A stretch of DNA of 64,000 nucleotides. Origin: a virus. Both the position numbers and the translations under genes were made by a program. The stretch is from positions 9,576-73,575 of IMG/VR virus record IMGVR_UViG_3300025018_000143. One strand, 5' to 3'. Shown here piece after piece: positions 4,257-63,351 of the stretch. Each line of letters opens with the position of its first letter. Position 1 is the first letter of the stretch. The notes below the pieces were generated by a model. That model ran no database searches and was not told the origin of the DNA. It saw only the letters and a list, made by a program, of their open reading frames with translations.

Positions 4257-4894
4257 TTGAAATTCAGGAATGTGATACGACCTATGATAATATAGGTCGT
4301 ATTTATAAAACACCGTTGGGTTCATATTATAGCGTTACCACAATGTTGAGCAATTCCAGTGAGAAGGAATTTCTCCAAGATTGGAAAGAAAGAATAGGTG
4401 AAGAAGAGGCGGCAAAACAAACCAGAGTAGCAAGTCACTTAGGCACTAATTTTCATGAGTTAGGCGAAGCATATCTCCTAAAACAACCGATGCCTAAAGT
4501 ACAATGGAAAGCAAAGTATCTTTTCGACAGAGCAATCCCAATTCTCAAAGAACATGTTACTAAGGTTCATGCCGTTGAAATTCCTCTTTGGAGTGAGATT
4601 CTTCAATTAGCAGGAAGGACTGATGCTGTTCTTGATTGGGATAATGAATTGTGCGTATTTGATTTTAAATGTATAGGTCATCATAATGAAAAGTGGCTTA
4701 CGGATTACTGGATTCAAACAGAAGCGTATGGTGTTTGCCTTAAGGAAATGTATGGTGTTGATATAAAGAAACTTGTTCTTCTTTGCGCAAATAAAAAAAC
4801 ATTAAAGGTGAAGGCCTTTACTATCAAACCGAAAAAACATTATATTGATTTAAGAGACAGAATAATAAAATTTAGAAAATTTTTAAGGACGTAA
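4253..4894 (+). CDS. PD-(D/E)XK / Cas4-like exonuclease
   Basis: YYSVTT, GTNFH, AGRTD, FDFK and Q...Y motifs typical of the T4-like phage exonuclease. Confidence 0.85.
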   Translation: MIEIQECDTTYDNIGRIYKTPLGSYYSVTTMLSNSSEKEFLQDWKERIGEEEAAKQTRVASHLGTNFHELGEAYLLKQPMPKVQWKAKYLFDRAIPILKEHVTKVHAVEIPLWSEILQLAGRTDAVLDWDNELCVFDFKCIGHHNEKWLTDYWIQTEAYGVCLKEMYGVDIKKLVLLCANKKTLKVKAFTIKPKKHYIDLRDRIIKFRKFLRT

Positions 4895-4948
4895 TTTACA
4901 ATTATCAAAATGCCAACAGTGCATTGCAGGTATGGCGCCTTCTTTCAT
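4883..4948 (-). pseudogene. vestige of a homing endonuclease C-terminus
   Basis: Reads MKEGAIPAMHCWHFDNCKLRP*, matching KEG....MKRWHFDNCK in the endonucleases at 9291 and 62542. Confidence 0.8.
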
Positions 4949-4949
4949 A

Positions 4950-5097
4950 CTTAGGGAAATGTATGGAATGAATGCAAAGAAGCTAATTCTGGTTTATGTG
5001 AATAAAAGACTCTGAAAGTGAAATATTTTTCCTGCCATGGCGTATAAATATGCTCAAGAAGTATCAAAAAGAATTATAGCTTTTAGAAATAAAATGA
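4950..5097 (+). pseudogene. stranded older 3' end of the exonuclease gene
   Basis: LREMYGMNAKKLILVYVNK../TLKVKYF../KRIIAFRNK parallels LKEMYGVDIKKLVLLCANKKTLKVKAF..DRIIKFRK, with frameshifts. 16/17-nt repeat 4739-4755 vs 4950-4966. Confidence 0.8.
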
Positions 5098-5126
5098 TTG
5101 ACATTCATCCAAATTAATGTTATAAT
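5098..5126 (+). promoter_or_regulatory. sigma70-type early promoter
   Basis: TTGACA-N17-TATAAT. Confidence 0.8.
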
Positions 5127-5249
5127 ATCTTATACAGAATGAGAATAAAACATTATGTAGGTGAAGCATGAGCTTATTGAGTGTGCTTCCTCTGAACCTA
5201 TGTACATTTACATTGCCAAAGAAAAAATATTTATGATAGAGGATATGCA

Positions 5250-5606
5250 ATGAGTGGTTACCCAAAAATAAAATATTATGGATGGGATTTTACTGAGCTT
5301 CATAAAGCATTCCAGATTCCTTACTGGGATGATATGGAGTTGGAAATGACAAATGAATGGGATGCTATAATGCTGAAAAATTATCTCAGTGGAGTTATAG
5401 GAGCCTCGAAATATCATTACGGTGGTAAGGATTTTGTTCTAATCTATACAGCAAAAGAAATTAGGCGATACCTTGCAGCGCTAATTAAAGCAGGCAGAAA
5501 TTGTCATCCTGATGATTGCCTTCTTTGGGAAGCAATGCTTAATTACAAAGATGACATGAATTTGGTTCGGATTTTTATGCACAATTGCGAAGAGGCTTGG
5601 GCATGA
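5250..5606 (+). CDS. hypothetical protein
   Basis: ORF with GAGG RBS. Confidence 0.65.
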   Translation: MSGYPKIKYYGWDFTELHKAFQIPYWDDMELEMTNEWDAIMLKNYLSGVIGASKYHYGGKDFVLIYTAKEIRRYLAALIKAGRNCHPDDCLLWEAMLNYKDDMNLVRIFMHNCEEAWA

Positions 5607-5764
5607 TAAAGAAATTTTGTGATGCTTGTGGTAAGGACATTACTGATACAAGAAGCAGAAAATTTTCATATGGCTGCCATCTAGGAATGCCAAATCTTGG
5701 CAGCCATTCTAATGCTGAAAGTAATTCTGTTTCAAGACGGGATTACTGCCGTAAACAAATTTAA
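5603..5764 (+). CDS. small CxxC protein (absent from ORF track)
   Basis: MIKKFCDACGKDI..., 53 aa, ATGA-coupled to the previous gene. Confidence 0.55.
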   Translation: MIKKFCDACGKDITDTRSRKFSYGCHLGMPNLGSHSNAESNSVSRRDYCRKQI

Positions 5765-5802
5765 ATAACTCAAAAAAGATAATGGAATAGAATGAAACAT
5801 GT

Positions 5803-5876
5803 TGGGATATAGTTCAATGGTAGAGCGGATGACTTTGAATCATCAAGTTCCAGTTCGAACCTGGATATCCCTTCCA
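5803..5876 (+). tRNA. tRNA-Gln (anticodon UUG), CCA encoded
   Basis: Acceptor TGGGATA/TATCCCT; D arm GTTC/GAGC; anticodon arm GATGA-CTTTGAA-TCATC; T arm TCCAG-TTCGAAC-CTGGA; ends TCCA. Confidence 0.92.
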
Positions 5877-5892
5877 ACATACGAGGGCATCA

Positions 5893-6912
5893 ATGAATAA
5901 ATTACTAAAGCCATATGACATAGTTGAGATTTATAAAAATGCAACTAAGGATGTAATCAAATACGTCCATAATAATGGCTCTGAAACAACGATCAAAACA
6001 GTCAATACTTGTATTGGTCCTGCAGGTATTGTGGATAAAAGCAAAGCAGTAATGTTTATATCTGTGTCCTCTGGCTGCTCACAAAAATGTAAATTTTGCT
6101 ATCTGACGAGCAAGAAATTTCCTTTTTGTCAATTAGATACAAATACCATAATTAAATCATGCCTAGAAGTTCTAAAGAAATCAACAGAGCAATTAGAAGG
6201 GAAATATCTTAAAATTTCATTCATGGGTATGGGAGATGCTTTTGCTTCCAAGACAGATATGAATGAAATTGTCAAAAAGGTATTTCTGTTCGCATACTGT
6301 AAAGGAATGATTGCTGGCATTGATGGTGTTGATATCGGGACTTCATATCCTAATGTGGATAATTCAGGGATTTATAATTCAATTAATATGCTGAAAGAAA
6401 CTATCTTTCACCTCAATATACCTTTTAATCCTTTCTATAATTACAATAAAATTGCTATGGAGTATCCTGATTCAAGGACTCCTGTTAGATTGTTTATATC
6501 ATTGCATAGTATTAATGATACTGTTAGGTCATATTTGATGCCCAATTCTTCATCAATACAAAGAATATTGGATGATATTAAAAATATTGACATTGATGTT
6601 ATATTCCATTATATCATGTTTGATGGCATTAATGATTCACAAGATGATATAGAAAAAATTCTTGCCTTCTTTGATCGTGATACCATGAGGAAGTATGAAT
6701 TAAGGATCCTCAGATATAATATGGATATGAACACAGCAGGGCTTGCTGAATCTCCAGTTGTCAATGAAGCAATCAATACATTGAAACAATCAAAGTTAAA
6801 ATTCAAGTACCAGATTTCTGCAGGGTCTGAAATTTCAGCATCCTGTGGACAATTTCTTTGCAGAAGATTTACAGATAGAAAAGAAAACTCCTCTGTTAGC
6901 TCAATGGTTTAG
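5893..6912 (+). CDS. RlmN/Cfr-like radical SAM protein
   Basis: GCSQKCKFC (CxxxCxxC), FMGMGD, ISLHS, GINDS and ISASCGQ match RlmN motifs. Confidence 0.85.
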   Translation: MNKLLKPYDIVEIYKNATKDVIKYVHNNGSETTIKTVNTCIGPAGIVDKSKAVMFISVSSGCSQKCKFCYLTSKKFPFCQLDTNTIIKSCLEVLKKSTEQLEGKYLKISFMGMGDAFASKTDMNEIVKKVFLFAYCKGMIAGIDGVDIGTSYPNVDNSGIYNSINMLKETIFHLNIPFNPFYNYNKIAMEYPDSRTPVRLFISLHSINDTVRSYLMPNSSSIQRILDDIKNIDIDVIFHYIMFDGINDSQDDIEKILAFFDRDTMRKYELRILRYNMDMNTAGLAESPVVNEAINTLKQSKLKFKYQISAGSEISASCGQFLCRRFTDRKENSSVSSMV

Positions 6913-6916
6913 ATCG
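6890..6916 (+). pseudogene. possible tRNA 5'-half remnant
   Basis: CCTCTGT-TA-GCTC-AATGGTTTA-GATC resembles an acceptor strand plus D arm; no anticodon or T arm follows. Confidence 0.4.
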
Positions 6917-6946
6917 GAGAATCAAAATAAAATATGCAAGGAGGCA

Positions 6947-7177
6947 ATGATGGAAGAGATACAGGTAGTTGAACCACAACAAGCAGTAGAAAAAAGAAAT
7001 GGATCATATGAGGACAAGGTAATAAAAGCTTTGCTCCCCGAATCAGGAAAGATTACTGATTACGAATTTGGACCGCCGCAAAGATTGAAAGCTGAGCCAA
7101 GAGAGTTCTATGTCATTAGACGTAAACTTGAAAAGCAAATTCTCAAGATGAGAATGAGGCAAGGCATTTCAAAGTGA
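6947..7177 (+). CDS. hypothetical protein
   Basis: ATG 6947 after AGGAGG. Confidence 0.6.
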   Translation: MMEEIQVVEPQQAVEKRNGSYEDKVIKALLPESGKITDYEFGPPQRLKAEPREFYVIRRKLEKQILKMRMRQGISK

Positions 7178-7265
7178 GTTGTACAGCAAACATCATTCTA
7201 ATAAAATAAGAAAAGGGCTTATATTAAATTTTATAATGCCCCTTTTCCTTTATAAAGGAGAGAAA

Positions 7266-7562
7266 ATGCAATCAAACAGAGAAATAAAAATAAAAACGAC
7301 GTATGAGATTGATATCGACGACCAGCTTATTGTAATTGACATTGATGAAGTAAAGGAATTGTATGACCTTTTAAGTAAAATACTCAAACCAGAGAAAACC
7401 ACGCTGGAGGAAACTCTCCAGCCTGACATTTATAAGAATCCAGGTTGGGAGTTTCCTCAGTATTTGGCTGATCCTTGTTTTGGTACTTGTGATGGTACTA
7501 CTATGGTTGGAAAGGGAAACAATCCGCCGCTTCCTACCAATGATGATTTTTCAGCTAAATAA
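7266..7562 (+). CDS. hypothetical protein
   Basis: ATG 7266 after AAGGAG. Confidence 0.6.
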   Translation: MQSNREIKIKTTYEIDIDDQLIVIDIDEVKELYDLLSKILKPEKTTLEETLQPDIYKNPGWEFPQYLADPCFGTCDGTTMVGKGNNPPLPTNDDFSAK

Positions 7563-7596
7563 TCATACTCATTGTCATAAACCACATATTACATTG

Positions 7597-7604
7597 TATA
7601 AATA
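7597..7604 (+). promoter_or_regulatory. T4-type late promoter for the lysis cassette
   Basis: TATAAATA upstream of the holin. Confidence 0.7.
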
Positions 7605-7667
7605 ATATTGTAATTCTTTTACTTAATCTTTTTCTTAATCTGGTTAACGGATGCAATATAATATTCA

Positions 7668-8075
7668 ATGTTTAACAATAATGAACAACTACAATTTATA
7701 ATATCTGCTGTGATGATGTCTATAGTTGGAGGCATCGCCAACTGGCTCATGGCAGATAAGCACAGTGTATTCCAATTCATTGTTGCAGTATTTCTAGCTG
7801 GGTTCGCAGGATTCCTGGTAGGGCAACTATGCCTCGAGGCCAAAATCTCTGAGGCAGTTTCTTTCTTCCTTTGCGGCTCAGCTGGATTATGTGCTGAAAT
7901 GATCCTCAAAATTTCCAAGAAGGCAATGCTTTCTAAATTTAGCTTAATGACTGACCAGAAGCTGGATGAAGAATTGGACATGATTGAAAAAGAATATGCC
8001 AAAAGAAAATCCCTACATGTATCAACAGAAGATGAAAAAGAGTCAAATAATCTAAAAAATTTCCTTAACAAATAA
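7668..8075 (+). CDS. putative holin (LydA-like, 3 TM helices)
   Basis: Three TM helices, GG.A / AGFAG / CGSAG pattern, charged C-tail; lies upstream of a cell-wall hydrolase. Confidence 0.75.
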   Translation: MFNNNEQLQFIISAVMMSIVGGIANWLMADKHSVFQFIVAVFLAGFAGFLVGQLCLEAKISEAVSFFLCGSAGLCAEMILKISKKAMLSKFSLMTDQKLDEELDMIEKEYAKRKSLHVSTEDEKESNNLKNFLNK

Positions 8076-8080
8076 CTCCC

Positions 8081-8935
8081 ATGCAATATATTCATGATCT
8101 TATTTTCACCCGAACTATAAATATCCACCATGCGTATTCTATAGTTGCTCTTATAATTTCTTTATTTGGCCTTGGTATAGCATTCTTTATAAGAAGGGCG
8201 GCTGTGTTTAGATTAAAATTAGCCTGTGTTTACATTTTATTATTCGTAGCAGGGTTAGGTGGCTTCTTATTTGAGCATGAGAAATTTGGTATGGTTGAGC
8301 AGACTCTATACACATCATTCTTTATTCTTATGACTGTTTTATATTGGAGGGAAGTCTCTTCATATATGACCACAGAAGGATATCACCGCAAATCTCTTGG
8401 AATTTATATAGATGATGTTCCAGATTTGATATGGGTAAAGGATCTTGAGCACAGGTATACCTATGTAAATAAAGCTGTATCAAGTCTTTTGGGATTACCA
8501 ATTAATCTTATACTTGGCAAAACTGAAAATGATATCCGTGAAGTTTTTGAACGAACAGGAATGACTTATACTATTGGGTCAGAAGCCATTAAAGTAGATA
8601 ATAATCACACAGGCGATTTCATGATAGAGCCAAGAATTTTTCTTGATTCTGGTATTATCAATCGAAGGTTTATTGCACTTCAGGTATATAAAGGCCCTCT
8701 ATATAATAGCGATGATGTAATCACAAGAAAGCATGTGGGATATTTTGGTATCGGAAGAGACCTGACATACGACGTCGAAGACCATAACAGAATAACTGAA
8801 CATATAGAAAAAAATGAAATGGACGAGGCAATGATAATGTTCCAGATTCATAAAAATAGATATCAAAAAGTAAATATTTCTTCTATTAGTTTAAGAAGAA
8901 AAGAAGAGGATCAGGATGATAAAAGTAACATGTAG
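8081..8935 (+). CDS. membrane protein with PAS domain
   Basis: Three N-terminal TM helices, then IDDVPDLIWVKDLEHRYTYVNKA...LGK...GIGRDLT (PAS_4/PAC signature); no output domain. Confidence 0.85.
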   Translation: MQYIHDLIFTRTINIHHAYSIVALIISLFGLGIAFFIRRAAVFRLKLACVYILLFVAGLGGFLFEHEKFGMVEQTLYTSFFILMTVLYWREVSSYMTTEGYHRKSLGIYIDDVPDLIWVKDLEHRYTYVNKAVSSLLGLPINLILGKTENDIREVFERTGMTYTIGSEAIKVDNNHTGDFMIEPRIFLDSGIINRRFIALQVYKGPLYNSDDVITRKHVGYFGIGRDLTYDVEDHNRITEHIEKNEMDEAMIMFQIHKNRYQKVNISSISLRRKEEDQDDKSNM

Positions 8936-9341
8936 CTCAGAAGATTTGGAATGGCTTGCGAGAAATATATATTTCGAAGCCAGGAGTGAAAATATTCTTG
9001 GCAGGATGGCGGTTGCTTTTGTTACAATGAATAGAGCAACCCATCCAAGAGCAAGATGGGGAAAATCAATAACAAGTGTTGTCACCCAGCGGCTTCAATT
9101 TTCATGGTACAACAACAGAGTAGTTCCTGAGATAAAGAATCAAAATCTGTATAAAGAAATCAAATCACTTGCAAAGCAATGTGTTGAGATATACAACAAT
9201 ATGTCTGATGCAGGATATGAATTGGATGGTATCGTCCAAGGAGCAGACCATTACTACGCTACTTGGATTGCACCTCCTAATTGGATTGCTTCAATGAAAT
9301 TCGTGTGCCAAATTGGGGTACATAAATTTTACAAGGCTTGA
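8916..9341 (+). CDS. SleB/Hydrolase_2-family cell-wall hydrolase (endolysin)
   Basis: LARNIYFEARSE, AVAFVTMNR, QFSW, GADHYYA, IGVHKFY. Confidence 0.9.
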   Translation: MIKVTCSSEDLEWLARNIYFEARSENILGRMAVAFVTMNRATHPRARWGKSITSVVTQRLQFSWYNNRVVPEIKNQNLYKEIKSLAKQCVEIYNNMSDAGYELDGIVQGADHYYATWIAPPNWIASMKFVCQIGVHKFYKA

Positions 9342-10066
9342 TTTATTTTTGCAATTGTCGAAGTGCCATCTTTTCATAGGAGCAATTTTGCCTTCTTTTC
9401 CGCAATAAACACATACAACATTGGATTTTGATAATGATGTTTCTCTCATTTTTTGTTTAGTTGATGAGGAATGAATTCTATTCTTTCCTGCAATAGAAAG
9501 ATTTTTTTTATGTTCTGGTGATATTATTCTTCCTTTATGGGCTGCACTGATTTTTCTTTTGGTTGCTTCGGTTCTAGTTTTACCTTTCAAAGCTTTGCTT
9601 ATTTGTTTCTTTTGCCATTCGGATATTATCATGCCTTTATTAGCTTTGCTTATTTTGTCTCTAGTTTCTTGAGAAATTATTCTACTTTTATTAGCGACAG
9701 CAATTAATTTTTTAATTTTTTCATAGCTTCTACTGTTAATTTTATAATCACGGTACTGATTTTTAGATTTTCTATGTATCATACACCAAAATGCATAATT
9801 AATTTTATGATTACTATGCATTTTGGACAATAACCAATGGCATATAAAATGTTCTCTGGCTTCCAATTCCACTATATTATATTTTGAATTATTCCCTCCC
9901 AAACAACTAGGTATTATGTGATGTCTTTCTTTATAAATATTTTGAAGTAAACATCGATTATTTGCCTTATTTATGATGGATTGATATATTTTAGAATAAT
10001 TCATAATAGTTCCTATAGGATATTAATAAATGATGTTTATTTTATTTATAAGACCATTACTACGCT
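9245..10066. mobile_element. endonuclease cassette bounded by 16-bp direct repeats
   Basis: AGACCATTACTACGCT at 9245-9260 and 10051-10066; minus-strand late promoter TATAAATA at 10043-10050 abuts the right repeat. Confidence 0.8.
9291..10004 (-). CDS. HNH homing endonuclease with NUMOD3-like repeats (free-standing)
   Basis: ERHHIIP.CLGG.N...N...L.AREHF.CH.LL; SQETRDKIS-type repeats; C-terminal CxxC and MKRWHFDNCK. Confidence 0.9.
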   Translation of the reverse strand: MNYSKIYQSIINKANNRCLLQNIYKERHHIIPSCLGGNNSKYNIVELEAREHFICHWLLSKMHSNHKINYAFWCMIHRKSKNQYRDYKINSRSYEKIKKLIAVANKSRIISQETRDKISKANKGMIISEWQKKQISKALKGKTRTEATKRKISAAHKGRIISPEHKKNLSIAGKNRIHSSSTKQKMRETSLSKSNVVCVYCGKEGKIAPMKRWHFDNCKNKSSLVKFMYPNLAHEFH

Positions 10067-10150
10067 GATTATATCAAGAAGCCTGTATGGGCAAAGTATA
10101 TGAAGCCTACTGTTAAGATAGGTGTTCATGAATTCTATCATGATGTATAA
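10052..10150 (+). pseudogene. alternative (stranded) 3' end of the endolysin
   Basis: DHYYADYIKKPVWAKYMKPTVKIGVHEFYHDV* vs DHYYATWIAPPNWIASMKFVCQIGVHKFYKA*. Confidence 0.85.
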
Positions 10151-10195
10151 TAACTAACCCAGCGCCGGGCAATCGCTACCACTGTGCGGGGAAGG

Positions 10196-10227
10196 ACCTC
10201 TCTTTCGAAAGATTGAGAGGTTTTTTT
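10196..10227 (+). terminator. rho-independent terminator
   Basis: ACCTCTC-TTTCGAAAGATT-GAGAGGT followed by a T-tract. Confidence 0.75.
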
Positions 10228-10238
10228 ATGGTTAATGC

Positions 10239-10348
10239 TTGACAACGCCTTTCCTTTGTGTTATAATCTTTATATAAAGAATGAGAGAAGAAAACAAAAA
10301 GAGATGAAAAAAATAATTATTGACAGAACAAATTAAAAATGTTATAAT
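10239..10348 (+). promoter_or_regulatory. two tandem sigma70-type early promoters
   Basis: TTGACA-N17-TATAAT at 10239-10267 and 10320-10348. Confidence 0.85.
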
Positions 10349-10449
10349 CTTTATATAAGATGAAAAACATCTTAAATGCTCTGTGATTGAATTTTCAAAG
10401 CAAGACATACTAACAGACACAAATCAATTTTAAATGCGAGGATCAAGCA

Positions 10450-10620
10450 ATGGATGACGGAATGATGAATTTTATTGACATGAATTGGGATGAGATTATT
10501 TCTGTGATCAAAGCAGAAGGAATACCAACAAGAAGTCTGGATTATGATGATATTGAGGACCTGATTATGAATATGGAATCTCTGTATCTGTGGGCTAGTG
10601 AAAATGGCGTAATTGATTGA
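10450..10620 (+). CDS. small highly acidic early protein (absent from ORF track)
   Basis: MDDGMMNFIDMNWDEIISVIKAEGIPTRSLDYDDIEDLIMNMESLYLWASENGVID*; GAGG RBS. Confidence 0.6.
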   Translation: MDDGMMNFIDMNWDEIISVIKAEGIPTRSLDYDDIEDLIMNMESLYLWASENGVID

Positions 10621-10629
10621 AAATAGTTC

Positions 10630-10658
10630 TTGCAATTTGCCTTTTAGTATGTTATAAT
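10630..10658 (+). promoter_or_regulatory. sigma70-type early promoter
   Basis: TTGCAA-N17-TATAAT; leader AAAGAATGAGAGAAGAAAACAAAAA repeats that of the 10239 promoter. Confidence 0.8.
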
Positions 10659-10707
10659 ACTTTATAAAGAATGAGAGAAGAAAACAAAAATCAAAAGGAG
10701 ATACAAC

Positions 10708-10923
10708 ATGGCTATGAAAGATTTTAATACTGTTTCTGTTAAAGTTGATGGTCGTCAGGAATTCTTTGGTAATGTTTATGCTACCAAAGAGGAAGCAAAG
10801 GCGGGTGCAGATACTGGTTATACTCCTGTTCTTGTTGCTTCACTTAATGGTGCAGAGGTCAACGGTTGGATGAATCATTCAAAATTCGGCTATCAAGAAG
10901 ATTGGGCTTGCAATGCGAAGTGA
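10708..10923 (+). CDS. hypothetical early protein
   Basis: Strong AAGGAG RBS after the promoter. Confidence 0.75.
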   Translation: MAMKDFNTVSVKVDGRQEFFGNVYATKEEAKAGADTGYTPVLVASLNGAEVNGWMNHSKFGYQEDWACNAK

Positions 10924-11350: not shown

Positions 11351-11943
11351 TGGGTCCTGTTCGGCTATATGAAGTTTTCAATACAATGAAACTTCATTGG
11401 AATACCAATTATGATTTTGTCAGGTATAAAGGAAGGTCAAAGAATTTCAATGCTGAAAACTTGGACAAATCGAATAATAAGCATGTATACTATCAGGTAG
11501 CTAAGAGATACAAGATAGAAAAGGATTTTGTGCTCACAATATTGCCTATATTCCTTGAAAATAACAATACTCAAATATCCGATTTATTGAGCAAAGAAAG
11601 ATGTGAAAAAATATCGATGGAGTGGTACAGAAAAATCCAGACTATGCAAAAGTGGTTTTACGAGGATTGTGAGGTTATCTGCAAATACATCAAAGATAAT
11701 GGCATGAGCTTTCAGCAATTCTTTCTAGGGAATCCAATATTGGATTTTCTTCTTTATGACCACATAAATATAGAGACATTTATTATATTAGACAGGTTCA
11801 TTTTTTTCTTGACAAAGAACAAAAAGAAGAGTATAATATATACTCAAGTATATGAACAGAAAGTGCAAAATTATTCTTCTTTCATACAAGTTGAAACTGA
11901 TAAATATGATAAATTGTTTAAGAAGGCTATGACGAGGAGGTAG
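11350..11943 (+). CDS. gp59: helicase loader gp59
   Basis: MKLHW...YDFVRYKG, INIETFIILD; synteny. Confidence 0.85.
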   Translation: MGPVRLYEVFNTMKLHWNTNYDFVRYKGRSKNFNAENLDKSNNKHVYYQVAKRYKIEKDFVLTILPIFLENNNTQISDLLSKERCEKISMEWYRKIQTMQKWFYEDCEVICKYIKDNGMSFQQFFLGNPILDFLLYDHINIETFIILDRFIFFLTKNKKKSIIYTQVYEQKVQNYSSFIQVETDKYDKLFKKAMTRR

Positions 11944-46242: not shown

Positions 46243-46347
46243 ATTATAACATCTAATATATCCTTTGTCAAGTATTTTTTAATTTATTTTTTCTTTTTTC
46301 TTCATTCTTTATATAGAGATTATAACATTAAAAATTCCTGGTGTCAA
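46243..46347 (-). promoter_or_regulatory. two tandem sigma70-type early promoters
   Basis: TTGACA-N17-TATAAT on - at 46271-46243 and 46347-46319. Confidence 0.85.
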
Positions 46348-50500: not shown

Positions 50501-50640
50501 TTGCAAATCTTGAGGATTGATGTTATAATGATTTAATAGTATAAGAAGAGGATAGGGTCTGCAGCCTGAAAGCAAGAAAACCTATCTTGTTTCCTCTTCT
50601 GTTTTTAATTAATAGGTGATTCTTAAAGGTAAAGATAATG
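50501..50640 (+). promoter_or_regulatory. sigma70-type promoter plus structured 5' leader of an endonuclease gene
   Basis: TTGCAA-N17-TATAAT (50501-50529); AGAAGAGGA/TCCTCTTCT stem 50544-50600. Confidence 0.65.
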
Positions 50641-52272
50641 ACTAGAGAAGAAGCTAGAATTTGGATATTGAATAATTGTTTCACAAAAAAAGGAGATAAA
50701 TTGTCTCCTTGTTATTGTAGGGTGGAATATTTAGCAGCAAAAAATAAAGATGTATATGAAATTTTATTAAAAAAAACGAATCCAATATATTGTGATTCAA
50801 TATCCAAAATGATACAATTATTTTTGGATGACAAATACCAATGTGAATGTATTTCCTGTGGTAAAATACTTAAAAAATTAAATCTTTTTTGTGATGCAAA
50901 ATGTCAAAATAAATCTGGTTTATATGAAAATTTTAAGAATTCTCACAGCCCAGAAGCTAATAGGAAACGAAAGAAAACTAATATAGAAAAATTTGGTAAT
51001 GAATATGCTGTAGCTTCAGAAACAGTAAAGAAAAAAATTAAAACTGTTTGTAGAGAAAAATACAATGCTGATAGTTATTTTGGGTCTGATGAAGGTCAAC
51101 AAAAAATAAATGAAACACAAATTAAATTATATGGCGCTGTTGGATTAAAATCAAAATTCATACTAAACAAGACACAAGAAAAACAGAAAGTTTTATATGG
51201 TGGAGTTGGCTTAAAATCAAACTCTATATTATTAAAGGCTCATAAAGAAAAAAATAAATTAAATCCTTTTGGTGTGATTGATAAAAATTCTTTACGTGAA
51301 TCTGTAAAGGAAAATGGTGTTTATCGATTATCATTGATTAACAATTGTGATGATAGCACAATTTATAAAGCTATTCATCGTTGTGGATTAAATAAAGAAT
51401 TATTAAGGAAGCAATCATCCATCTTCGAGGATGAAGTTTATAATTTTGTCCTTAAAAATTCAGCTTATAAAGTAATTAAAAATGATAGGAATGTGATTAA
51501 ACCTTATGAGATGGATATCTTAATTCCTGAATATAATATTGGATTTGAATGTAATGGTCTTTTTTGGCATTCAGAAAAATATAAAGATAATAATTATCAT
51601 TATATCAAATCCGAACAATCTAGGGCTAATGGAATTAAATTAATTCATATATGGGAAGATGATTGGAATTATTCTAAAGATATTATCAAACATAAAATTT
51701 TACATCATTTGAATAAAAATGATAAAGTATACGCTAGAAAAACTATTCCAGGGTTTGTTGGCAAAATAGAAGCTAAGGATTTTTTAATTAAATACCATAT
51801 ACAAGGCAATGGTAATTCATCAATAGCAACTGGTTTGTATTATGATGATGTATTAATTTCATTGATGACCTTTAAGAGGCATAAAAATAATGAATACACA
51901 TTGGATAGGTTTTGTTCTAGTTGTGATGTAATTGGTGGGTTCTCTAAACTCCTCAAATACACTATTAATGAATACAAGATTGGTGTAATACATACCTTCC
52001 ATGATATATCATACAATGGAATGGGCAATAATGTTTATAATAAATCTGGGTTTGAATTTGATTATCTCATTAAACCAGATTATAAATACTTGTATAATAA
52101 TAAAAGAATACACAAATTTAATTTTAGACATAAAAATTTAAAGAGAATTCTTAATAATTATAATGAAAATGAATCCGAACATACTAATTGTTATAATCAC
52201 AAAATATATAAGGTGTATGATGCTGGTAAACAAAAATATAAAATGATTATAAAGGAAAATCTAAATGCCTAA
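50638..52272 (+). CDS. Hef-like free-standing homing endonuclease
   Basis: KYG/LYG repeats; DILIP..NIGFECNG.FWHS, LIHIWEDDW, YARK, RFC...VIGGFSKL, YDAGK. Confidence 0.8.
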   Translation: MTREEARIWILNNCFTKKGDKLSPCYCRVEYLAAKNKDVYEILLKKTNPIYCDSISKMIQLFLDDKYQCECISCGKILKKLNLFCDAKCQNKSGLYENFKNSHSPEANRKRKKTNIEKFGNEYAVASETVKKKIKTVCREKYNADSYFGSDEGQQKINETQIKLYGAVGLKSKFILNKTQEKQKVLYGGVGLKSNSILLKAHKEKNKLNPFGVIDKNSLRESVKENGVYRLSLINNCDDSTIYKAIHRCGLNKELLRKQSSIFEDEVYNFVLKNSAYKVIKNDRNVIKPYEMDILIPEYNIGFECNGLFWHSEKYKDNNYHYIKSEQSRANGIKLIHIWEDDWNYSKDIIKHKILHHLNKNDKVYARKTIPGFVGKIEAKDFLIKYHIQGNGNSSIATGLYYDDVLISLMTFKRHKNNEYTLDRFCSSCDVIGGFSKLLKYTINEYKIGVIHTFHDISYNGMGNNVYNKSGFEFDYLIKPDYKYLYNNKRIHKFNFRHKNLKRILNNYNENESEHTNCYNHKIYKVYDAGKQKYKMIIKENLNA

Positions 52273-55695: not shown

Positions 55696-55696
55696 A

Positions 55697-56418: not shown

Positions 56419-56457
56419 ATAGTAAATAAAAATTTAATGTTTAAAGGAGTATATAAA

Positions 56458-57357: not shown

Positions 57358-57397
57358 TCTTAGTAAATAATTATAAATGTAATTTAGGAGAAATAAA

Positions 57398-58675
57398 ATG
57401 ATCGTATCCAATGCAACTATCCAAGAATTGACAGAAAAATGGGATGGTATTATAAATGAAGAATCTCTTCCGCCGATTCAAGATGATTGGAAGAGAAAAG
57501 TTACTATGCGTATGCTTGAGAATCAAGAGCAGGCAATGCTTGTTGAAGATCCTACAAACGTAGCAGGCGGAATTGCTACTTGGGATCCCGTTCTTATCAG
57601 CATGATCCGTAGAAATGCACCTAAGATGATTGCTTTTGATATCTTTGGTGTTCAACCAATGACTCAGCCTACTGGTTTGATTTTTGCTCTTCGTTCACGT
57701 TATGTGGATGCTGATCTTGATCAAGCAGGCCCTGAAGCATTCTTTGACGAGTCTAACACAGGTTTCTCTGGCGCTCGTGGTGATATGACCACTATTGGTT
57801 CTACTCCTACTTGGGCAGGTAAAGGAACTCCTGATGGTACTGTTACTGATCCTACTGATTCAAATCTGGGTTACGGTACTGGTATGTCTACTGCTGATGC
57901 TGAAAAGCTCGGTAAGACCAATGTCTGGAATGAGATGGCATTCTCCATCGAGAAATCTTCTGTTGAAGCTCTTTCTCGTGGTTTGCGTGCTACCTGGTCG
58001 ACAGAATTGACTCAGGACTTGAAAGCAGTACATGGTCTTGATGCAGAAACTGAAATGACCAACATTCTTTCAACTGAGATTCTTTCAGAGATGAACCGCG
58101 AAATGGTACGTAGAGCATATGTTCTTGCTAAACCAGGTGCTCTTAATGCCACTGTTGCTGGTTCTTACGACCTTGATGTTGATTCTAACGGTCGTTGGTC
58201 TGTTGAGCGTTTCAAAGGTCTTATGTTCCAGATCGAGAAAGAAGCTAATCTTATTGCTATTCAAACAAGACGTGGTAAAGGTAACTTCCTTATCGTATCC
58301 TCTGATGTAGCTTCAGCTCTTGCTATGACTGGTATGCTTGATCAGGGCCGTTCTGCTGATTATCTGTCTCCAAATCTTGTTGATCCTACTGGAATGACTT
58401 ATGTTGGTATGTTGAATGGTCGGACTAAGGTATTCGTTGATCCTTATACTACTGTGAATAGTATTCTTATCGGCTTTAAAGGTGCTAATCAGTACGATGC
58501 TGGTGCCTTCTACTGTCCATACGTACCTCTCAGTTTGTATAAAGCTACTACTTCTGATGGCTTCCAACCTCGCATAGGATTCAAACAACGATACGGGTTC
58601 AAAGAGAATCCTTTCGGTGGTACCACTTCAGCAAATCCTTATTTCCGCATATTTAAAGTTTTAAATCTTGCGTGA
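57398..58675 (+). CDS. gp23: major capsid protein gp23
   Basis: GVQPM..PTGLIFA.R, ELTQDLKAVHGLDAE.E..NILS.EI, FYCPYVPL, FQP.IGFK.RYG. Confidence 0.98.
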   Translation: MIVSNATIQELTEKWDGIINEESLPPIQDDWKRKVTMRMLENQEQAMLVEDPTNVAGGIATWDPVLISMIRRNAPKMIAFDIFGVQPMTQPTGLIFALRSRYVDADLDQAGPEAFFDESNTGFSGARGDMTTIGSTPTWAGKGTPDGTVTDPTDSNLGYGTGMSTADAEKLGKTNVWNEMAFSIEKSSVEALSRGLRATWSTELTQDLKAVHGLDAETEMTNILSTEILSEMNREMVRRAYVLAKPGALNATVAGSYDLDVDSNGRWSVERFKGLMFQIEKEANLIAIQTRRGKGNFLIVSSDVASALAMTGMLDQGRSADYLSPNLVDPTGMTYVGMLNGRTKVFVDPYTTVNSILIGFKGANQYDAGAFYCPYVPLSLYKATTSDGFQPRIGFKQRYGFKENPFGGTTSANPYFRIFKVLNLA

Positions 58676-58700
58676 TTTCAAGTAGTTAAAAAGTAGTACA

Positions 58701-58739
58701 AAGCCTCACTGGGAATGAAGCGCCCAGTGAGGCTTTTTT
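58701..58739 (+). terminator. rho-independent terminator
   Basis: AAGCCTCACTGGG-loop-CCCAGTGAGGCTT followed by a T-tract. Confidence 0.9.
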
Positions 58740-58753
58740 ATGGCAAAAATTCC

Positions 58754-58782
58754 TTGACAATATAATCCTTATGTGTTATAAT
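58754..58782 (+). promoter_or_regulatory. sigma70-type promoter
   Basis: TTGACA-N17-TATAAT. Confidence 0.8.
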
Positions 58783-58813
58783 TACATATTATATAATACA
58801 TAAAAGGAGAATA

Positions 58814-60109
58814 ATGAAAGATTTGATGAAAAAATGTAAATGTGGGTGTGGTGAATTTGTTCGTCCTGATAGAACATATATTAATGGACACAATAGCAGA
58901 GGAATTTCTGTATCTCATAATGAAAAGACCAAAAAAATTATTTCTATTAAAGCCAAGGAAAGGTTTAAAAATGGACAAATAGTGAATTGTAAAATATATG
59001 ATATCCCTTCCAAAGAGGATTTGGAATATATGTATAATGAAAAATTTTTATCCATGAATCAATTATCAAAGATGATGGACACATCAATACCTACATTGAA
59101 GAAATGGATGTTAAGTTATGAGATGAAAATAAGAAATCTAAAGAAAGCTAACCAGAATGCCTTGAAGACAGGTTCCAGAATATCATCTTATAATGATCCT
59201 GTTGTACAAAGAAAATGTTTTGATAATAGAAAAGTAATACGTCAATCAAAACAGGAATTAGAAGTGTATGAATACATAAAAACTTTTTACGATAAAGAAA
59301 TATATCAAAGCTATAAATTAGAAGGCGCAGAAATAGATATATTCATCCCTGATAAAAATATAGGTATTGAATATAATGGATTAGCTTTCCATTCCGAAAT
59401 GTTGCATTATGTTTTTAAAACTAAATCCTTAAAACAAGTAAAAACATTACATCAATATAAAACTAATATAGCAAGAAAAAATAATATCCATCTTATTCAT
59501 ATATGGGAAGATGATTGGAATAATAAGCAGGATATTATAAAGAGAAAAATATCATATCTTCTTAATGGCCCTGAGAAAAGAATTTACGCTAGAAAATGCA
59601 GTATTACAAAATTGTCGGGAGGAGAAGCTGAAATCCTTTATAGCAAATATCATATACAAGGAGGAGTTAATGCCACTGTCCATTATGGCTTGATGTATGG
59701 TAATGAATTGGTATCCTGTATGTCATTTACTCATAAAAAAGATGATTGGGAATTGGTTAGGTTTGCTTGTTCCTGCTCAGTTGTAGGTGGGTTTTCCAAA
59801 TTAGTAAAGCATTTTATAAAATACAACCAAATCAAAGGTGAGCTGTATTCATTTGCTGATTTGACAATTGTTAATCCTCATAACAATGTTTACTTAAATA
59901 ATGGGTGGCTGGAAGCAGGGTATTTGCAGCCTGACTATAAATATATTGTCGATGGTGAGAGAAAGCATAAATTTGGTTTCAGACATTCTTGTTTAAAGAA
60001 TAAATTAGAAAATTATGATCCATCTTTAACTGAGCATGAAAATTGTCTTAATAATAAAATTTACTGTATATGGGATGCAGGAAAAATAAAATACACTTAC
60101 TGTAAATAA
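58814..60109 (+). CDS. second Hef-like homing endonuclease
   Basis: CKCGCG..GHN N-terminus; EIDIFIP..IGIEYNG..FHS, LIHIWEDDW, YARKC, VVGGFSKL, WDAGK. Confidence 0.8.
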   Translation: MKDLMKKCKCGCGEFVRPDRTYINGHNSRGISVSHNEKTKKIISIKAKERFKNGQIVNCKIYDIPSKEDLEYMYNEKFLSMNQLSKMMDTSIPTLKKWMLSYEMKIRNLKKANQNALKTGSRISSYNDPVVQRKCFDNRKVIRQSKQELEVYEYIKTFYDKEIYQSYKLEGAEIDIFIPDKNIGIEYNGLAFHSEMLHYVFKTKSLKQVKTLHQYKTNIARKNNIHLIHIWEDDWNNKQDIIKRKISYLLNGPEKRIYARKCSITKLSGGEAEILYSKYHIQGGVNATVHYGLMYGNELVSCMSFTHKKDDWELVRFACSCSVVGGFSKLVKHFIKYNQIKGELYSFADLTIVNPHNNVYLNNGWLEAGYLQPDYKYIVDGERKHKFGFRHSCLKNKLENYDPSLTEHENCLNNKIYCIWDAGKIKYTYCK

Positions 60110-60113
60110 ATTG

Positions 60114-60142
60114 TTGACACATCCCTCATCCTATGTTATACT
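60114..60142 (+). promoter_or_regulatory. sigma70-type early promoter
   Basis: TTGACA-N17-TATACT plus conserved leader. Confidence 0.85.
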
Positions 60143-60203
60143 CTTTATATAGGATGCTGAAAGAGAGTAATTGAATAATAAATTTAACGGTAGGGGTTTG
60201 TAT

Positions 60204-60485
60204 ATGAATCACACAAAAGGTCCTTGGAAAGTAAAAGCACCACAAGGTGATTTTGGTTATGAGGTTGTTGGTGATAACAATGAACTTGTATGTATGGCTG
60301 GTCGACATCCATACAGTCAAAAAATAGCTAAAGCAAATGTTGAAATTATAGCTATGGCATTAGAAATGAAATCAATCCTAGAAGAGGCAGTTGCAGCATA
60401 CGATGATTTCCCTCAAGAAGTCATTGTCGAGATAGCTCCTGATTGGTTCTTTGAGGCAGTGGAATTATTATCAAGAAATAAATAA
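60204..60485 (+). CDS. hypothetical early protein
   Basis: MNHTKGPW...AN..I..A.EM, a common phage small-protein pattern. Confidence 0.7.
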   Translation: MNHTKGPWKVKAPQGDFGYEVVGDNNELVCMAGRHPYSQKIAKANVEIIAMALEMKSILEEAVAAYDDFPQEVIVEIAPDWFFEAVELLSRNK

Positions 60486-60490
60486 AAAAA

Positions 60491-60519
60491 TTGACAAGAC
60501 CCGAGGATAATGTTATACT
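60491..60519 (+). promoter_or_regulatory. sigma70-type early promoter
   Basis: TTGACA-N17-TATACT; leader nearly identical to that of the 60114 promoter. Confidence 0.85.
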
Positions 60520-60895
60520 CTTTATATAAGATGCTGAAAGAGAGAAATTAAGAACAAAATTCTAAATAGCAAATAAAATGATTGAGTACACACTAGATTG
60601 GGTCAATGAATATATCACTGTGCTTTGTGGTAAATTTTGCGTATGGAATGAATCAAAAGATTTGTGTACTAGTGAATTTGATACATATGAAGAGGCAACT
60701 TCTTGTGTTCTGGTAAACATAAAAAGATGAGGCGTAATTTCTTCTTTGGTAAAGAAAGGGCTTGTTGAAGTTTTGGATCAGGAGGGTGAAGGAAAATTAA
60801 ATGATATAACGATTATGACTACAAAAGAAGGTGCTGAAGTTTGTAAAGCATTATGTTTTGATACTGTTTCATAAATAAATTATTAGGAGAATGAA

Positions 60896-61369
60896 ATGAA
60901 AAGCTTTTCAAAATTTGTTGTGGGTGTTGGTGTTGTTGCTAGTCTTATGATGTCCTCTCCTGCTCATTCAGTAGAATTGAAAGGAGATTTAGTAAAGTAT
61001 GAAAAACCAATTGAATTGTGCTTAGAAGTTTATGCCCTTGGACTTGATAATATGATAGCCATGTTTGTTCTCGGAGGCAAAGAATTGCCTTCAGAATCAG
61101 AAATGACTGTACTTGACCAGAAAGCAGTGGATCTTTGTTTATGTAAATATGCCATTTTGAGCGTGACTTATAATGATCCTTCGAAGGAAAAACATTTTAT
61201 TTCTGATATGGCAAAAAGCGAAGAGTTTCTAATGAAGGCAATGAATGATGCTGATTATGGCAAATCAAAGTATCAAGCAAATAAAATAGTTAATAGCTTA
61301 CATTTTGGTTATTTGTCTCTCGCTCAATCGGTTGATGCAATGGATGTATGCGAAAAGTCTCTTCAGTAG
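60896..61369 (+). CDS. secreted/periplasmic hypothetical protein
   Basis: Sec-type signal peptide MKSFSKFVVGVGVVASLMMSSPAHS; 4 Cys. Confidence 0.7.
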   Translation: MKSFSKFVVGVGVVASLMMSSPAHSVELKGDLVKYEKPIELCLEVYALGLDNMIAMFVLGGKELPSESEMTVLDQKAVDLCLCKYAILSVTYNDPSKEKHFISDMAKSEEFLMKAMNDADYGKSKYQANKIVNSLHFGYLSLAQSVDAMDVCEKSLQ

Positions 61370-61430
61370 TATCTTTTTTCTAGAATGATAAATAATAGAG
61401 TACATATATTATGAATTCATTCTCCCTCCT

Positions 61431-61468
61431 AGAAAAGCAACAGACGCCTCCTCTGTTGCTTTTCTTTT
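61431..61468 (+). terminator. rho-independent terminator
   Basis: AGAAAAGCAACAGA-loop-TCTGTTGCTTTTCT. Confidence 0.75.
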
Positions 61469-61560
61469 GGCTTTTTTTCCTAGAGCCAAAATTTCACTTG
61501 ACAAAGCCTCTAAATATGTTATAATGTATTAATACTGATAAAATATTACAAGGAGCATAT

Positions 61561-62085
61561 ATGGCTATTGACCTAGCAAACCCTAAGGAACTTAATTTAC
61601 TATCCGATAATGCCTTTCATTTTAAGATTGAGAGCCTACCAAAATTTTCATTCTTTGCTCAAACATTTGAATTGCCTGGTGTTAGTATGGGGCAGGCATT
61701 ACGAGCAACACCATTAGTTGATTATCCTGTCCCAGGTGATAAAGTAGAATTCAATGATTTACAGGTAACTTTTCTTGTTGATGAGTCATTGGAAAATTAC
61801 AAAGAAGTTTGGAAATGGATAATGCACCTCGGCTATCCTCAGAACACAAGAGAGTATAAAAATCTTGTTACTGGCAATTCACCTTATATCAGGACCTCAG
61901 ATATAAATCTTTTCACATTGTCAAATAAATTTAATGTCATAAATGAAGTCCAATTTATGGATGCTTTCCCTTATGCTCTTAGTGGTATTGTGTTTAATTC
62001 TGCGAACACTCAGGTTGATCATCCAGTAGCTACTGCAAGTTTTCAGTATTCATTATATCGTTTCAAGGGTGATTCTACCTTTTAA
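61561..62085 (+). CDS. gp3: tail tube terminator gp3
   Basis: N.L....F.F....P...FF.Q...LPG, PGD...F..L...FLVDE...NY.E...W, DAFP..L. Confidence 0.9.
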   Translation: MAIDLANPKELNLLSDNAFHFKIESLPKFSFFAQTFELPGVSMGQALRATPLVDYPVPGDKVEFNDLQVTFLVDESLENYKEVWKWIMHLGYPQNTREYKNLVTGNSPYIRTSDINLFTLSNKFNVINEVQFMDAFPYALSGIVFNSANTQVDHPVATASFQYSLYRFKGDSTF

Positions 62086-62102
62086 TTCAAAAGAGGAAAA
62101 AT

Positions 62103-62564
62103 GTGAGTGAAGAAAATAAAAAAGTGTCCAATTCTTTGGACATGCTCAAACAAATGGCTGATGTTGATTTGAAGATTGATAAGAGTCTTCTGGATCAAGA
62201 ATCATTGAGGACTCCTAATCTTCATAATAAATGGTTACGAATGCTTTATGACAGGAAGGAAAAGCTCAAGATGTTTGATTGTAAGAAGAAAATCCTTACA
62301 AGAGACAAATGGCTTTATTATAATGGAAAAGCTTCCGATGATGTTTATAAAGAAAAAGGAGTATTCAATTATAAAGTCATGAAGAGTGATTTACAAATGT
62401 TTATTGATGCTGATGAGGATTTCCATAAATTAGAAGCTCAGGAATTAAGAGTCAAGAATGAAGTTGAATTTATCCAGAACACTCTGGCTGAAATCAATAG
62501 GCGAAGCTTCAACATCGCTAATGCCATTAAGTTCATGATGTTCACAAATGGGTTAAATCCCTAA
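62103..62564 (+). CDS. uvsY: recombination mediator UvsY
   Basis: DLKID...L..ES...P.LH.KW, YYNGKA, R.F.I.NAI. Confidence 0.92.
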   Translation: MSEENKKVSNSLDMLKQMADVDLKIDKSLLDQESLRTPNLHNKWLRMLYDRKEKLKMFDCKKKILTRDKWLYYNGKASDDVYKEKGVFNYKVMKSDLQMFIDADEDFHKLEAQELRVKNEVEFIQNTLAEINRRSFNIANAIKFMMFTNGLNP

Positions 62565-63253
62565 ATTTGCAATTGTCAAAATGCCATCTTTTCATTCCAA
62601 ATAAACTGCCTTCTTTATTACAATGAGGGCAGATTATTTTATCTTTGTATTTTAATGAATTTGTTTCTAAACGTTTTTTTGTTGATTCAGGAGAATTTTT
62701 TCTACCTAAAGCTGATATGCGCATTTTCTTTTTAGTTTCTTCAGAAACTATTTTACCCATGTGAGCTATACTTAATTTTTTTATCTCTTCTGGGTCTTTA
62801 AATCTTTGGTAGTTCGCGTTTGATATTTTGTTTCTTGATTCTAATGAATGTTTTTTATTAGTGTTTATTTTTGATAGATGTATAGCTAATTCTGGTCTTT
62901 GTTGATGAGTTAATTTATTTGATTTTGATATTTTTTCTTTGTTTCTTCATTATGTGACATGCCTAATCTAGTGGAGCCGCCAATACCACCTGTACAGGCA
63001 TTATATGTATCTTTGCGATTAATAAAATCAGAATTAACAATTTCTATTTCTTTTTTGAATGCATCATCCTCATTATCAAAAATAAAAAGAATTTTTCTGG
63101 TAAATAATTGTTTTCCATATTTTGTATTGCTTGGTTTAATACTTTGCCTGATCCAAGATAACCATCAAATTCAATACCTTTTTGTTTATGTTTTCCTACA
63201 TAAATTTTATTGTTGACAGTATTAGTAGTTTCGTATATAATATAATTAAACAT
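62542..63253 (-). pseudogene. GIY-YIG (Seg-like) homing endonuclease broken by two frameshifts
   Basis: YIIY.TTN.VN.KIYVGKH...Y.GSG; continues KYGK...YN...GG.GG after a shift near 63120; NUMOD3-like repeats after a shift near 62938; ends CPHC.KEG....MKRWHFDNCK. Late promoter on - at 63280-63287. Confidence 0.85.
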
Positions 63254-63297
63254 AATTCTCCTTTGTTGTGTTTATTGAATATTTATACTTTTAAAAA

Positions 63298-63351
63298 ATA
63301 GCAGAAATAAATCATTAATATATTAAATTTATGAACGGGGAGAATAGTTAA
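63298..63351 (+). pseudogene. probable stranded older 3' end of uvsY
   Basis: IAEINH*YIKFMNGENS* resembles LAEIN...IKFMMFTNGLNP*. Confidence 0.5.

Follow-up and report, generated by a model that had tools for sequence, protein, structure and literature searches.

Antisense homing endonuclease genes and doubled gene ends at three loci of a virus contig

Homing endonuclease genes that supply a new end to the gene they enter, leaving the old end stranded downstream, are described from fungal mitochondria (mORFs) and from Torulaspora and Lachancea (WHO elements). Here we analyze three loci of comparable anatomy in a 64,000-nucleotide stretch of viral DNA, hereafter the window, which comprises bases 9576–73575 of the 73,575-bp virus contig IMGVR_UViG_3300025018_000143. 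The contig belongs to an uncultured T4-like phage, and among its T4-type genes are those for UvsY, an SleB-type endolysin, a PD-(D/E)XK exonuclease and the beginning of a UvsW helicase. At each locus a phage gene, encoding an endolysin (locus a), UvsY (locus b) or an exonuclease (locus c), runs into an antisense homing endonuclease gene or its remains, beyond which lies a second version of the gene's own 3' end. By analogy, the loci are best read as a phage counterpart of mORFs and WHO elements. We consider it likely that three free-standing cassettes of Mob (HNH) or Seg-like (GIY-YIG) type entered the 3' parts of phage genes by the same logic.

Described systems and how they compare

In Glomus, mORFs of atp6, atp9, cox2 and nad3 comprise an inserted C-terminus and a stranded native C-terminus (PMC3630166). 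As in the phage loci, the endonuclease of fungal mitochondrial mORFs lies in the 3' part of the host gene; as is proposed for them, that gene is kept whole by a foreign C-terminus, and its native C-terminus ends up stranded further downstream. In mORFs the inserted end has diverged far more than the native one, and GIY-YIG enzymes are among the carriers. Paquin et al. (1994) reportedly described such a mORF in atp6 of Allomyces macrogynus. The mORF reading frames are co-directional with the host gene, often in frame and co-transcribed, mostly of the LAGLIDADG family and located in an organelle genome, whereas the phage cassettes are antisense, have their own late-promoter motif, belong to the Mob and Seg families and reside in a lytic phage.

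WHO elements, which target FBA1, likewise involve no splicing, replace the host 3' end at each integration and leave 3' fragments behind. Their unit is an endonuclease gene plus a resistance-conferring 3' region, with the duplicated 3' fragment acting as the second homology arm, and their endonuclease is independently transcribed, carries a zinc finger and passes through a cycle of degeneration (PMC7282813). In contrast to the phage loci, WHO elements are intein-derived (HO/VDE-like), home in meiosis and form stacks of several fragments. The phage cassettes use other nuclease folds, are proposed to spread by co-infection and are accompanied by exactly two copies per gene end (endolysin, exonuclease).

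Closest in family are the Mob (HNH) and Seg (GIY-YIG) endonucleases of T4, among which SegF and SegG show intronless homing (PMC2988022, PMC2993671). They share with the cassettes the nuclease families, the domain plan of nuclease domain, NUMOD3 repeats and C-terminal zinc finger, and the free-standing state, and further the late promoters, the embedded promoters of neighboring genes and the frequent pseudogenes. The T4 copies are intergenic and, except for segD, co-oriented with their neighbors (PMC2988022), whereas the cassettes extend into coding sequence, put another end on the gene and leave the relic of the old one behind. The word 'duplication' is absent from that T4 mobile-DNA review.

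Two other systems resemble single features of the loci. The first concerns insertion into a conserved gene: mobE in nrdA of Aeromonas phage Aeh1 is said to be a Mob-type HNH gene inside such a gene without an intron, a case of genes in pieces. There, unlike at the present loci, the host gene comes to encode two separate polypeptides, and no end is duplicated. The second concerns repair: Parker et al. (1999) reportedly documented one-sided, illegitimate double-strand-break repair in homing of the T4 td intron. The T4 review lists Aeh1 mobE, and in its summary one-sided illegitimate repair in td homing is completed at microhomologies (PMC2988022); this is a laboratory intron system, and the passage describes no replacement gene end or natural relic. 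In the open-access literature, supplements aside, we found no description of a gene-end-replacing endonuclease layout in phages.

Anatomy of the three loci

In six-frame translation, both the window and the complete contig contain the amino-acid motif WHFDNC exactly three times, always on the minus strand and at the three loci in question (Table 1). All three share four parts in the same order: gene body, working 3' end, minus-strand endonuclease and stranded 3' end. The endonuclease is an intact HNH gene at (a), a twice-frameshifted gene of probable GIY-YIG type at (b) and a 21-codon stub at (c). At each locus the final K codon of the tail WHFDNCK lies 0–6 nt from the stop codon of the plus-strand gene, so that the reading frames overlap tail to tail. 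A first-pass annotation, made from the letters of the window, had proposed this layout, the three states of decay and a single tail on two different catalytic domains; the layout was borne out by the motif search, gene coordinates and profiles, and the other two points were confirmed as well.

Table 1. Features of the three loci and perfect sigma-70 promoters, in window coordinates
Locus	Feature	Position	Strand	Basis
a	Endolysin (SleB/CwlJ-type cell-wall hydrolase), current hybrid form, 141 aa	8916..9341	+	Pfam Hydrolase_2 E 1.2e-15; PHROG 938 endolysin
a	16-bp direct repeat copy 1, codons for DHYYA, opens current endolysin end	9245..9260	+	exact repeat
a	Mob-type HNH homing endonuclease gene, intact, 237 aa; HNH + NUMOD3 repeats + CCHC tail	9291..10004	-	PHROG 655, NUMOD3
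a	TATAAATA, T4-type late promoter motif, 39 nt upstream of HNH start	10043..10050	-	motif
a	16-bp repeat copy 2 + stranded, still open, older endolysin 3' end	10051..10150	+	frame, profile score, decay simulation
b	uvsY gene, current form, 153 aa	62103..62564	+	Pfam UvsY E 3.8e-27
b	GIY-YIG (Seg-like) homing endonuclease pseudogene, same zinc-finger tail, two frameshifts, overlaps uvsY end by 23 nt	62542..63253	-	tblastn with L054; PHROG 314
b	TATAAATA, 27 nt upstream of GIY-YIG start codon	63280..63287	-	motif
b	Degenerate stranded uvsY 3' end, IAEINH*YIKFMNGENS*	63298..63351	+	profile rank; L085 comparison
c	PD-(D/E)XK exonuclease gene, current hybrid form, 213 aa	4253..4894	+	Pfam PDDEXK_1 22.9 bits (cut-off 22); PHROG 298 exonuclease E 5.9e-53
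c	Current ('new') exonuclease 3' end, 16/17 repeat to stop	4739..4894	+	repeat, 42/58 identity, top profile score 60.5
c	Endonuclease stub, 21 codons + stop, zinc-finger tail only (KEG...WHFDNCK), overlaps exonuclease stop	4883..4948	-	six-frame translation
c	Stranded older exonuclease 3' end, two frame changes	4950..5117	+	three-frame translation, profile scores, decay simulation
	Perfect sigma-70 promoters	5098-5126, 10239-10267, 10320-10348, 11809-11837, 58754-58782, 61498-61525, 63213-63241	+	consensus match
	Perfect sigma-70 promoters	46243-46271, 46319-46347	-	consensus match

These could be ordinary intergenic endonuclease genes, convergent with their neighbors by chance, with the 'stranded ends' being debris from unrelated rearrangements or hitch-hiking donor DNA that plays no role in mobility. 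Such an account would agree with the T4 free-standing endonucleases, described as intergenic (PMC2988022), and with the majority of family members, which sit between genes without a duplication. We nevertheless consider it unlikely: the same layout is found at all three tail-bearing genes of the contig, the host stop falls within the same few nucleotides of the tail's last conserved codon each time, and every stranded fragment corresponds to the appropriate portion of the gene next to it, with strand and order preserved.

At locus (a), the HNH gene overlaps the endolysin end by 51 nt, its final 17 codons running antisense through that end. The exact 16-bp repeat (9245–9260 and 10051–10066) has a score reached by 0/500 shuffles. 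The stranded end is open over 10052–10150 (32 codons plus stop), and directly after the perfect 16-mer the copies show 37 differences over 66 nt. An intact end in frame after the second repeat copy would also suit a maintained switch, in which recombination between the repeats excises the 806-bp cassette to give an alternative endolysin C-terminus, both forms being kept. We give this almost no credence, since deletion between direct repeats is one-way, the joint of 9260 to 10066 was found in none of the matched contigs (though contigs lose rare variants) and the stranded ends are broken at the other two loci; intactness at (a) better fits a young insertion.

The endolysin is shorter, at 141 aa, than its relatives of 164–211 aa, which carry an N-terminal hydrophobic leader; in place of the leader, a 284-aa open reading frame (ORF) with membrane-like segments (8081–8935) overlaps the endolysin start. 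Directly after the stranded end, positions 10157–10226 form an unusually G+C-rich stretch with a hairpin, recognized by eye, followed by a T-run. This may be the native endolysin terminator; a terminator scan listed nothing on the plus strand at 10157–10226.

With three frames (-1, -3 and -2) combined, the GIY-YIG pseudogene at locus (b) can be aligned from end to end with L054, an intact relative of 209 aa, and this indicates two frameshifts. By eye, the frame changes coincide with coding-strand stretches of 4 and 6 A. Programmed frameshifting was considered here and dropped, as no evidence for it was found. The stranded uvsY end stops 1 nt before the uvsW start codon and contains, just before that start, GGGGAG, which we read as the uvsW ribosome-binding site. 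In the closest IMG/VR relative (L085), which is endonuclease-free at this place, the uvsY stop overlaps the uvsW start.

At locus (c), the minus-strand stub (4883–4948) terminates in KEGAIPAMHCWHFDNCKLRP. One base beyond it starts a second copy of the final 51 exonuclease codons, marked by a 16/17 repeat (4739–4755 and 4950–4966) that extends to 42/58 identity and is matched by 0/500 shuffles. The copies differ at 19 of 60 nt, and the stranded copy changes frame twice, by eye in one A run and one T run. The first-pass annotation had recognized this copy as frameshifted, correctly, and had ended it at 5097, while the frame runs to 5117.

The locus (a) protein matches PHROG 655 'homing endonuclease' over residues 1–229 (E 7.4e-53) and NUMOD3 in mid-protein (31.1 bits against a Pfam cut-off of 20.4); Pfam HNH_5 is weak alone (15.6 bits, cut-off 27.5). 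It is 40–44% identical to annotated Straboviridae homing endonucleases, with the HH...N...H region aligned. These relatives sit beside a head-completion gene or between nrdA and nrdB, the latter presumably being the position of mobE. An alignment of the locus (a) protein with three annotated phage enzymes and locus (b) leaves C198, C201, H214 and C218 invariant, and the CxxC...HxxxC tail of locus (a) is a predicted C-terminal zinc finger, described elsewhere as that of the T4 Mob class (PMC10448857, excerpt). The HNH gene is equipped with a start codon and a promoter motif of its own. No Rfam intron family was matched at gathering score anywhere in the window, and the endonuclease genes are therefore taken to be free-standing. 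A close homologue or donor of the HNH gene was not found among the metagenome contigs, where the best full-length match was 38% and the best partial match 48% identical.

The N-terminal piece of the locus (b) protein is sub-threshold in Pfam (SegE_GIY-YIG 15.7 bits, GIY-YIG 13.3 bits), and its intact relatives L054 and L069 are likewise just under the GIY-YIG cut-offs. Its first 38–42 residues are 49–57% identical to these two, and both pieces of the pseudogene match PHROG 314 'homing endonuclease' (E 9.9e-11 for the N-terminal one). The reading frame is not intact, with two frame changes relative to L054. By count, the last 30 nt of the tail are identical at 28/30 positions between (a) (9348–9377) and (b) (62566–62595), the proteins being 46% identical overall.

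The motif TATAAATA, which we take to be the T4 late-promoter box, has only nine minus-strand copies in 64 kb. Two of them sit at the right junctions of (a) and (b), as the first-pass annotation had noticed, and two such placements by chance are unlikely; the copy in (a) directly adjoins base 1 of the stranded endolysin end. Late promoters drive the endonuclease genes of T4 (PMC2988022). The window further contains nine perfect TTGACA-N16-18-TATAAT promoters against 0.21 expected, most with a TG-extended -10 box, which look like the early promoter set of the phage. One of them, at 5098–5126, has its -35 box within the last codons of the stranded exonuclease end; another, at 63213–63241, is antisense to the GIY-YIG pseudogene, within its opening codons, and is aimed at uvsW. 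In T4, embedded promoters favor retention of endonuclease genes (PMC2988022). The position of these signals suggests that the relics, and the dead endonuclease gene, persist because they hold the ribosome-binding site or promoter of the next gene.

Ancestry of the gene ends and integrity of the assembly

Profiles of the endolysin and exonuclease ends were built without the window's own proteins and run over 147,000 six-frame contig positions. The endolysin C-terminus profile scored 51.0 for the current end and 50.0 for the stranded end, with 20.9 for the next best position. For the first segment of the exonuclease profile the corresponding scores were 60.5, 49.2 and 15.5, and for the last segment the stranded end was best (23.3, current 21.0). 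The top two hits were always the current and stranded ends, and the contig holds exactly two copies of each gene end, with no stacks. When the observed number of random substitutions was put into the current end 20,000 times, neutral decay reached the profile score of the stranded copy in 0/20,000 simulations for (a) and in 0/20,000 for (c). Since both ends are also family-like, each was shaped by selection as a working end in a lineage of its own, and one of them was imported. On this sequence evidence, the ends in (a) and (c) are of separate ancestry, neither being a decayed local duplicate, in line with the earlier claim that gene ends were swapped and not duplicated in place.

For uvsY the evidence of separate ancestry is weaker, the relic being too short for the decay test. 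A 10-column profile of the uvsY C-terminus, built from 18 relatives without the window's own protein, places YIKFMNGENS (63319–63348, with the stop to 63351) first of 127,942 six-frame positions and the current end third (23.9 versus 17.8). The degenerate old uvsY end claimed by the first-pass annotation had initially seemed doubtful from the DNA, and this ranking supports it.

Local duplication would dispense with a foreign end: an untidy insertion would have given the target gene a second copy of its own 3' end, after which the two diverged in place. The boundary repeats of 16/16 and 16/17 are the trace expected of staggered insertion, and the closest exonuclease relatives are slightly closer to the current end, as if the stranded copy had merely decayed. 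We regard this account as quite improbable. The endolysin copies have diverged at more than half of the compared positions, yet the stranded one is open and scores almost as well as the current end; random decay with equal changes never reproduced such scores at (a) or (c); and the uvsY relic matches relatives better than the current end does.

Syntenic relatives without a cassette exist at 44–69% protein identity (L001/L165 and L085), and both exonuclease and endolysin occur without a cassette on an IMG/VR contig (L165, L001). All relatives used in the comparison of ends are at most 71% identical, and they do not reveal which end was imported. Among the four relatives with the most similar endolysin body, three match the stranded end better. 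Single-protein scans of IMG/VR found one endolysin relative and none for uvsY or exonuclease, the relatives having been found by alignment-based scans.

The sequencing runs that contain window sequence are aquifer metagenomes only. A near-identity search of 50,697 phage records found no DNA-level similarity to the three loci, leaving no cultured relative for alignment. Run X1 has a Logan contig of 9,357 bp at depth 15.9 that spans 4000–10400 with 0 differences and no relevant joint. Short contigs of two other runs are identical to the window across left junctions, that of (c) in X3 (4628–4895) and that of (a) in X4 (9243–9407). The contigs of X2–X4 leave most of the stretch uncovered and have no bearing on absence; no cassette-free variant was found among the metagenome contigs matched to the window. 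A joint of 5155 to 10339 (side 23) was taken as spurious.

An assembly artefact, in which the ends of each gene from two strain variants had been joined in tandem on either side of an endonuclease gene put in the wrong place, would be conceivable for a metagenome contig supported by a possible source run and otherwise by short, shallow contigs. The uninterrupted X1 contig and the identical X3 and X4 junctions make it very unlikely, as do identical endolysin, uvsY and exonuclease proteins recorded on a 144,072-bp contig. Plus-strand ORFs of at least 100 aa occupy 79% of the contig, so the assembly is not full of frame errors. All four frame changes lie, by eye, in short homopolymer runs, two in the GIY-YIG pseudogene (~63122–63127 and 62932–62937) and two in the stranded exonuclease end (5003–5006 and 5024–5028); intact genes elsewhere oppose a general sequencing problem. 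Misassembly, named by the first-pass annotation as a danger to its reading, was thus not seen at (a) and (c) in the X1 contig.

Distribution, proposed mechanism and significance

Matches to the tail occur in more than 594 IMG/VR stretches, 387 of which encode relatives, and in many viral contigs the tail is joined to HNH or to GIY-YIG N-termini. Being widespread on both nuclease folds, it is not the mark of a special family. The first-pass annotation had spoken of one family of antisense homing endonucleases, which did not hold: the tail is a common Mob-type zinc finger, and 34 of 53 tail-bearing IMG/VR ORFs have a co-directional downstream ORF, while 7 abut a convergent gene within 11 nt. It had also suggested surveying tail-bearing genes for antisense orientation with duplicated flanks, and the survey returned no clear case of that combination elsewhere.

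Flanks were compared with each other at the protein level (null mean 30.7, null maximum 43). Loci (a) and (c) score 88 and 84, and locus (b), with its start corrected, 36, within the null; since the screen misses short relics such as (b), the survey frequencies are lower bounds. Among 49 other tail-bearing IMG/VR endonuclease genes, three show convincing duplicated gene ends, all co-directional. In two (L057, 1699–3023; L040, 2262–3219) the 3' end of the upstream gene is repeated behind the endonuclease, the second copy overlapping the start of the next gene; in the third (L045, 2407–3361) a further copy of the downstream gene's 5' end precedes the endonuclease gene. Duplication of gene ends is therefore a recurrent finding in this enzyme family, whichever way the endonuclease gene faces, and three of three in one contig, all antisense, is unusual.

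Other scores slightly above the null were discarded as low-complexity sequence, stop-riddled frames or 9-residue repeats (L058 51, L079 46, L237 66, L192 49, L215 48, L203 45); L203 and L079 may be real short repeats. The metagenome and IMG/VR surveys are not independent, sharing apparently the same loci (L179 with L030, L180/L181 with L033) in some cases, as judged by ORF lengths and layouts. In L261 (relative G003; 1326–2792), a putative hydrolase gene, by eye of the HD-domain (RelA/SpoT-like) type, is interrupted by an antisense HNH gene of 288 aa that contains repeated zinc-finger modules. The front part of the hydrolase measures 85 aa and the back part 87 aa, and no end is obviously duplicated, a split similar to that of Aeh1 mobE. 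Within the window, a putative Hef-like endonuclease gene, a 544-aa ORF (50638–52272), lies co-directionally between a tail-sheath-like gene and the next gene; no flank duplication was found there (score 37). A single tRNA-Gln gene (anticodon TTG, 5803–5876) lies between the exonuclease locus and a 339-aa ORF.

Several observations weigh against import of gene ends by mobile cassettes. The first-pass annotation had expected uninserted relatives to match the stranded ends. They do so at (b), are split at (a), where 6 of the 11 closest endolysin relatives fit the stranded end better, 4 the current end and 1 both equally, and lean the other way at (c), where 13 of 21 exonuclease relatives, including the two closest, are nearer to the current end and 8 to the stranded one. 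The stranded and current uvsY ends have no significant DNA similarity (259/500 shuffles reach the score), the relic being ~10–17 codons long. No relative above 71% protein identity was found, with or without any cassette, and hence neither presence/absence polymorphism nor a donor. X1 is possibly the source run of the window, so that its agreement is that of a second assembler and not independent; the assembly comparison covers (a) and (c), locus (b) lying outside it, and three other runs contribute short pieces at ~3x depth. Most tail-bearing family members have no duplication. A targeted search of the eight convergent IMG/VR members found a clear stranded end at 0/8 (L019 scored 29 against a null maximum of 28, L083 25), and convincing duplication was found in 0/46 usable metagenome members.

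We nevertheless favor entry by mORF/WHO logic, for which cleavage, target site, immunity, mobility, direction of transfer and the identity of the imported end are inferred as follows. On the endonuclease strand, a cassette would consist of a minimal late promoter (TATAAATA), the endonuclease gene and, behind the zinc-finger tail, the antisense of a replacement host 3' end. The enzyme would cut the gene's 3' part in an uninterrupted allele, and repair would copy the cassette from a co-infecting donor, with the upstream gene body as one homology arm. Closure of the other side would use the gene's own 3' end as the second arm or take the form of an untidy join; one-sided, microhomology-closed repair as in T4 intron homing could give rise to a first cassette. 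The host gene would then be whole with a foreign end, the recognition sequence divided between two half-copies and the native end stranded beyond the promoter. The selfish gene would subsequently decay, from the intact state at (a) through the two frameshifts at (b) to the stub at (c). Stranded ends would be kept where signals of the next gene reside, namely the uvsW ribosome-binding site at (b), the -35 box of an early promoter at (c) and the by-eye hairpin and T-run at (a).

More tentatively, and with rather more doubt than confidence, we hypothesize that such a 'home-and-rescue' cassette is a distinct homing element of T4-like phages: a Mob or Seg nuclease combined with a minimal late promoter and a recoded end of the host gene, with the stranded native end serving as a portable downstream homology arm that keeps the start signals of the next gene. 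If true, these cassettes could, whichever way they face, enter core genes such as uvsY, endolysin and nucleases at their coding ends and would be a regular cause of terminus-by-terminus mosaicism in phage proteins. The boundaries 9245–9260/10051–10066 and 4739–4755/4950–4966 would then mark recognition or cleavage sites of enzymes without otherwise known targets. The predicted sites are concrete, and one intact enzyme is available.

Free-standing homing endonucleases are among the commonest selfish genes of large lytic phages, and their intron-free entry into coding sequence, like the extent to which they remodel host proteins, is poorly documented. Three examples at three ages in one genome offer a natural time series of invasion and decay. 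For annotation, a short 'orphan' ORF next to an endonuclease gene may represent the stranded end of another gene. With endolysin and exonuclease C-termini of separate ancestry from their stranded copies, and weaker evidence of the same for uvsY, the loci indicate that the ends of phage genes can differ in history from the gene bodies to which they are joined.

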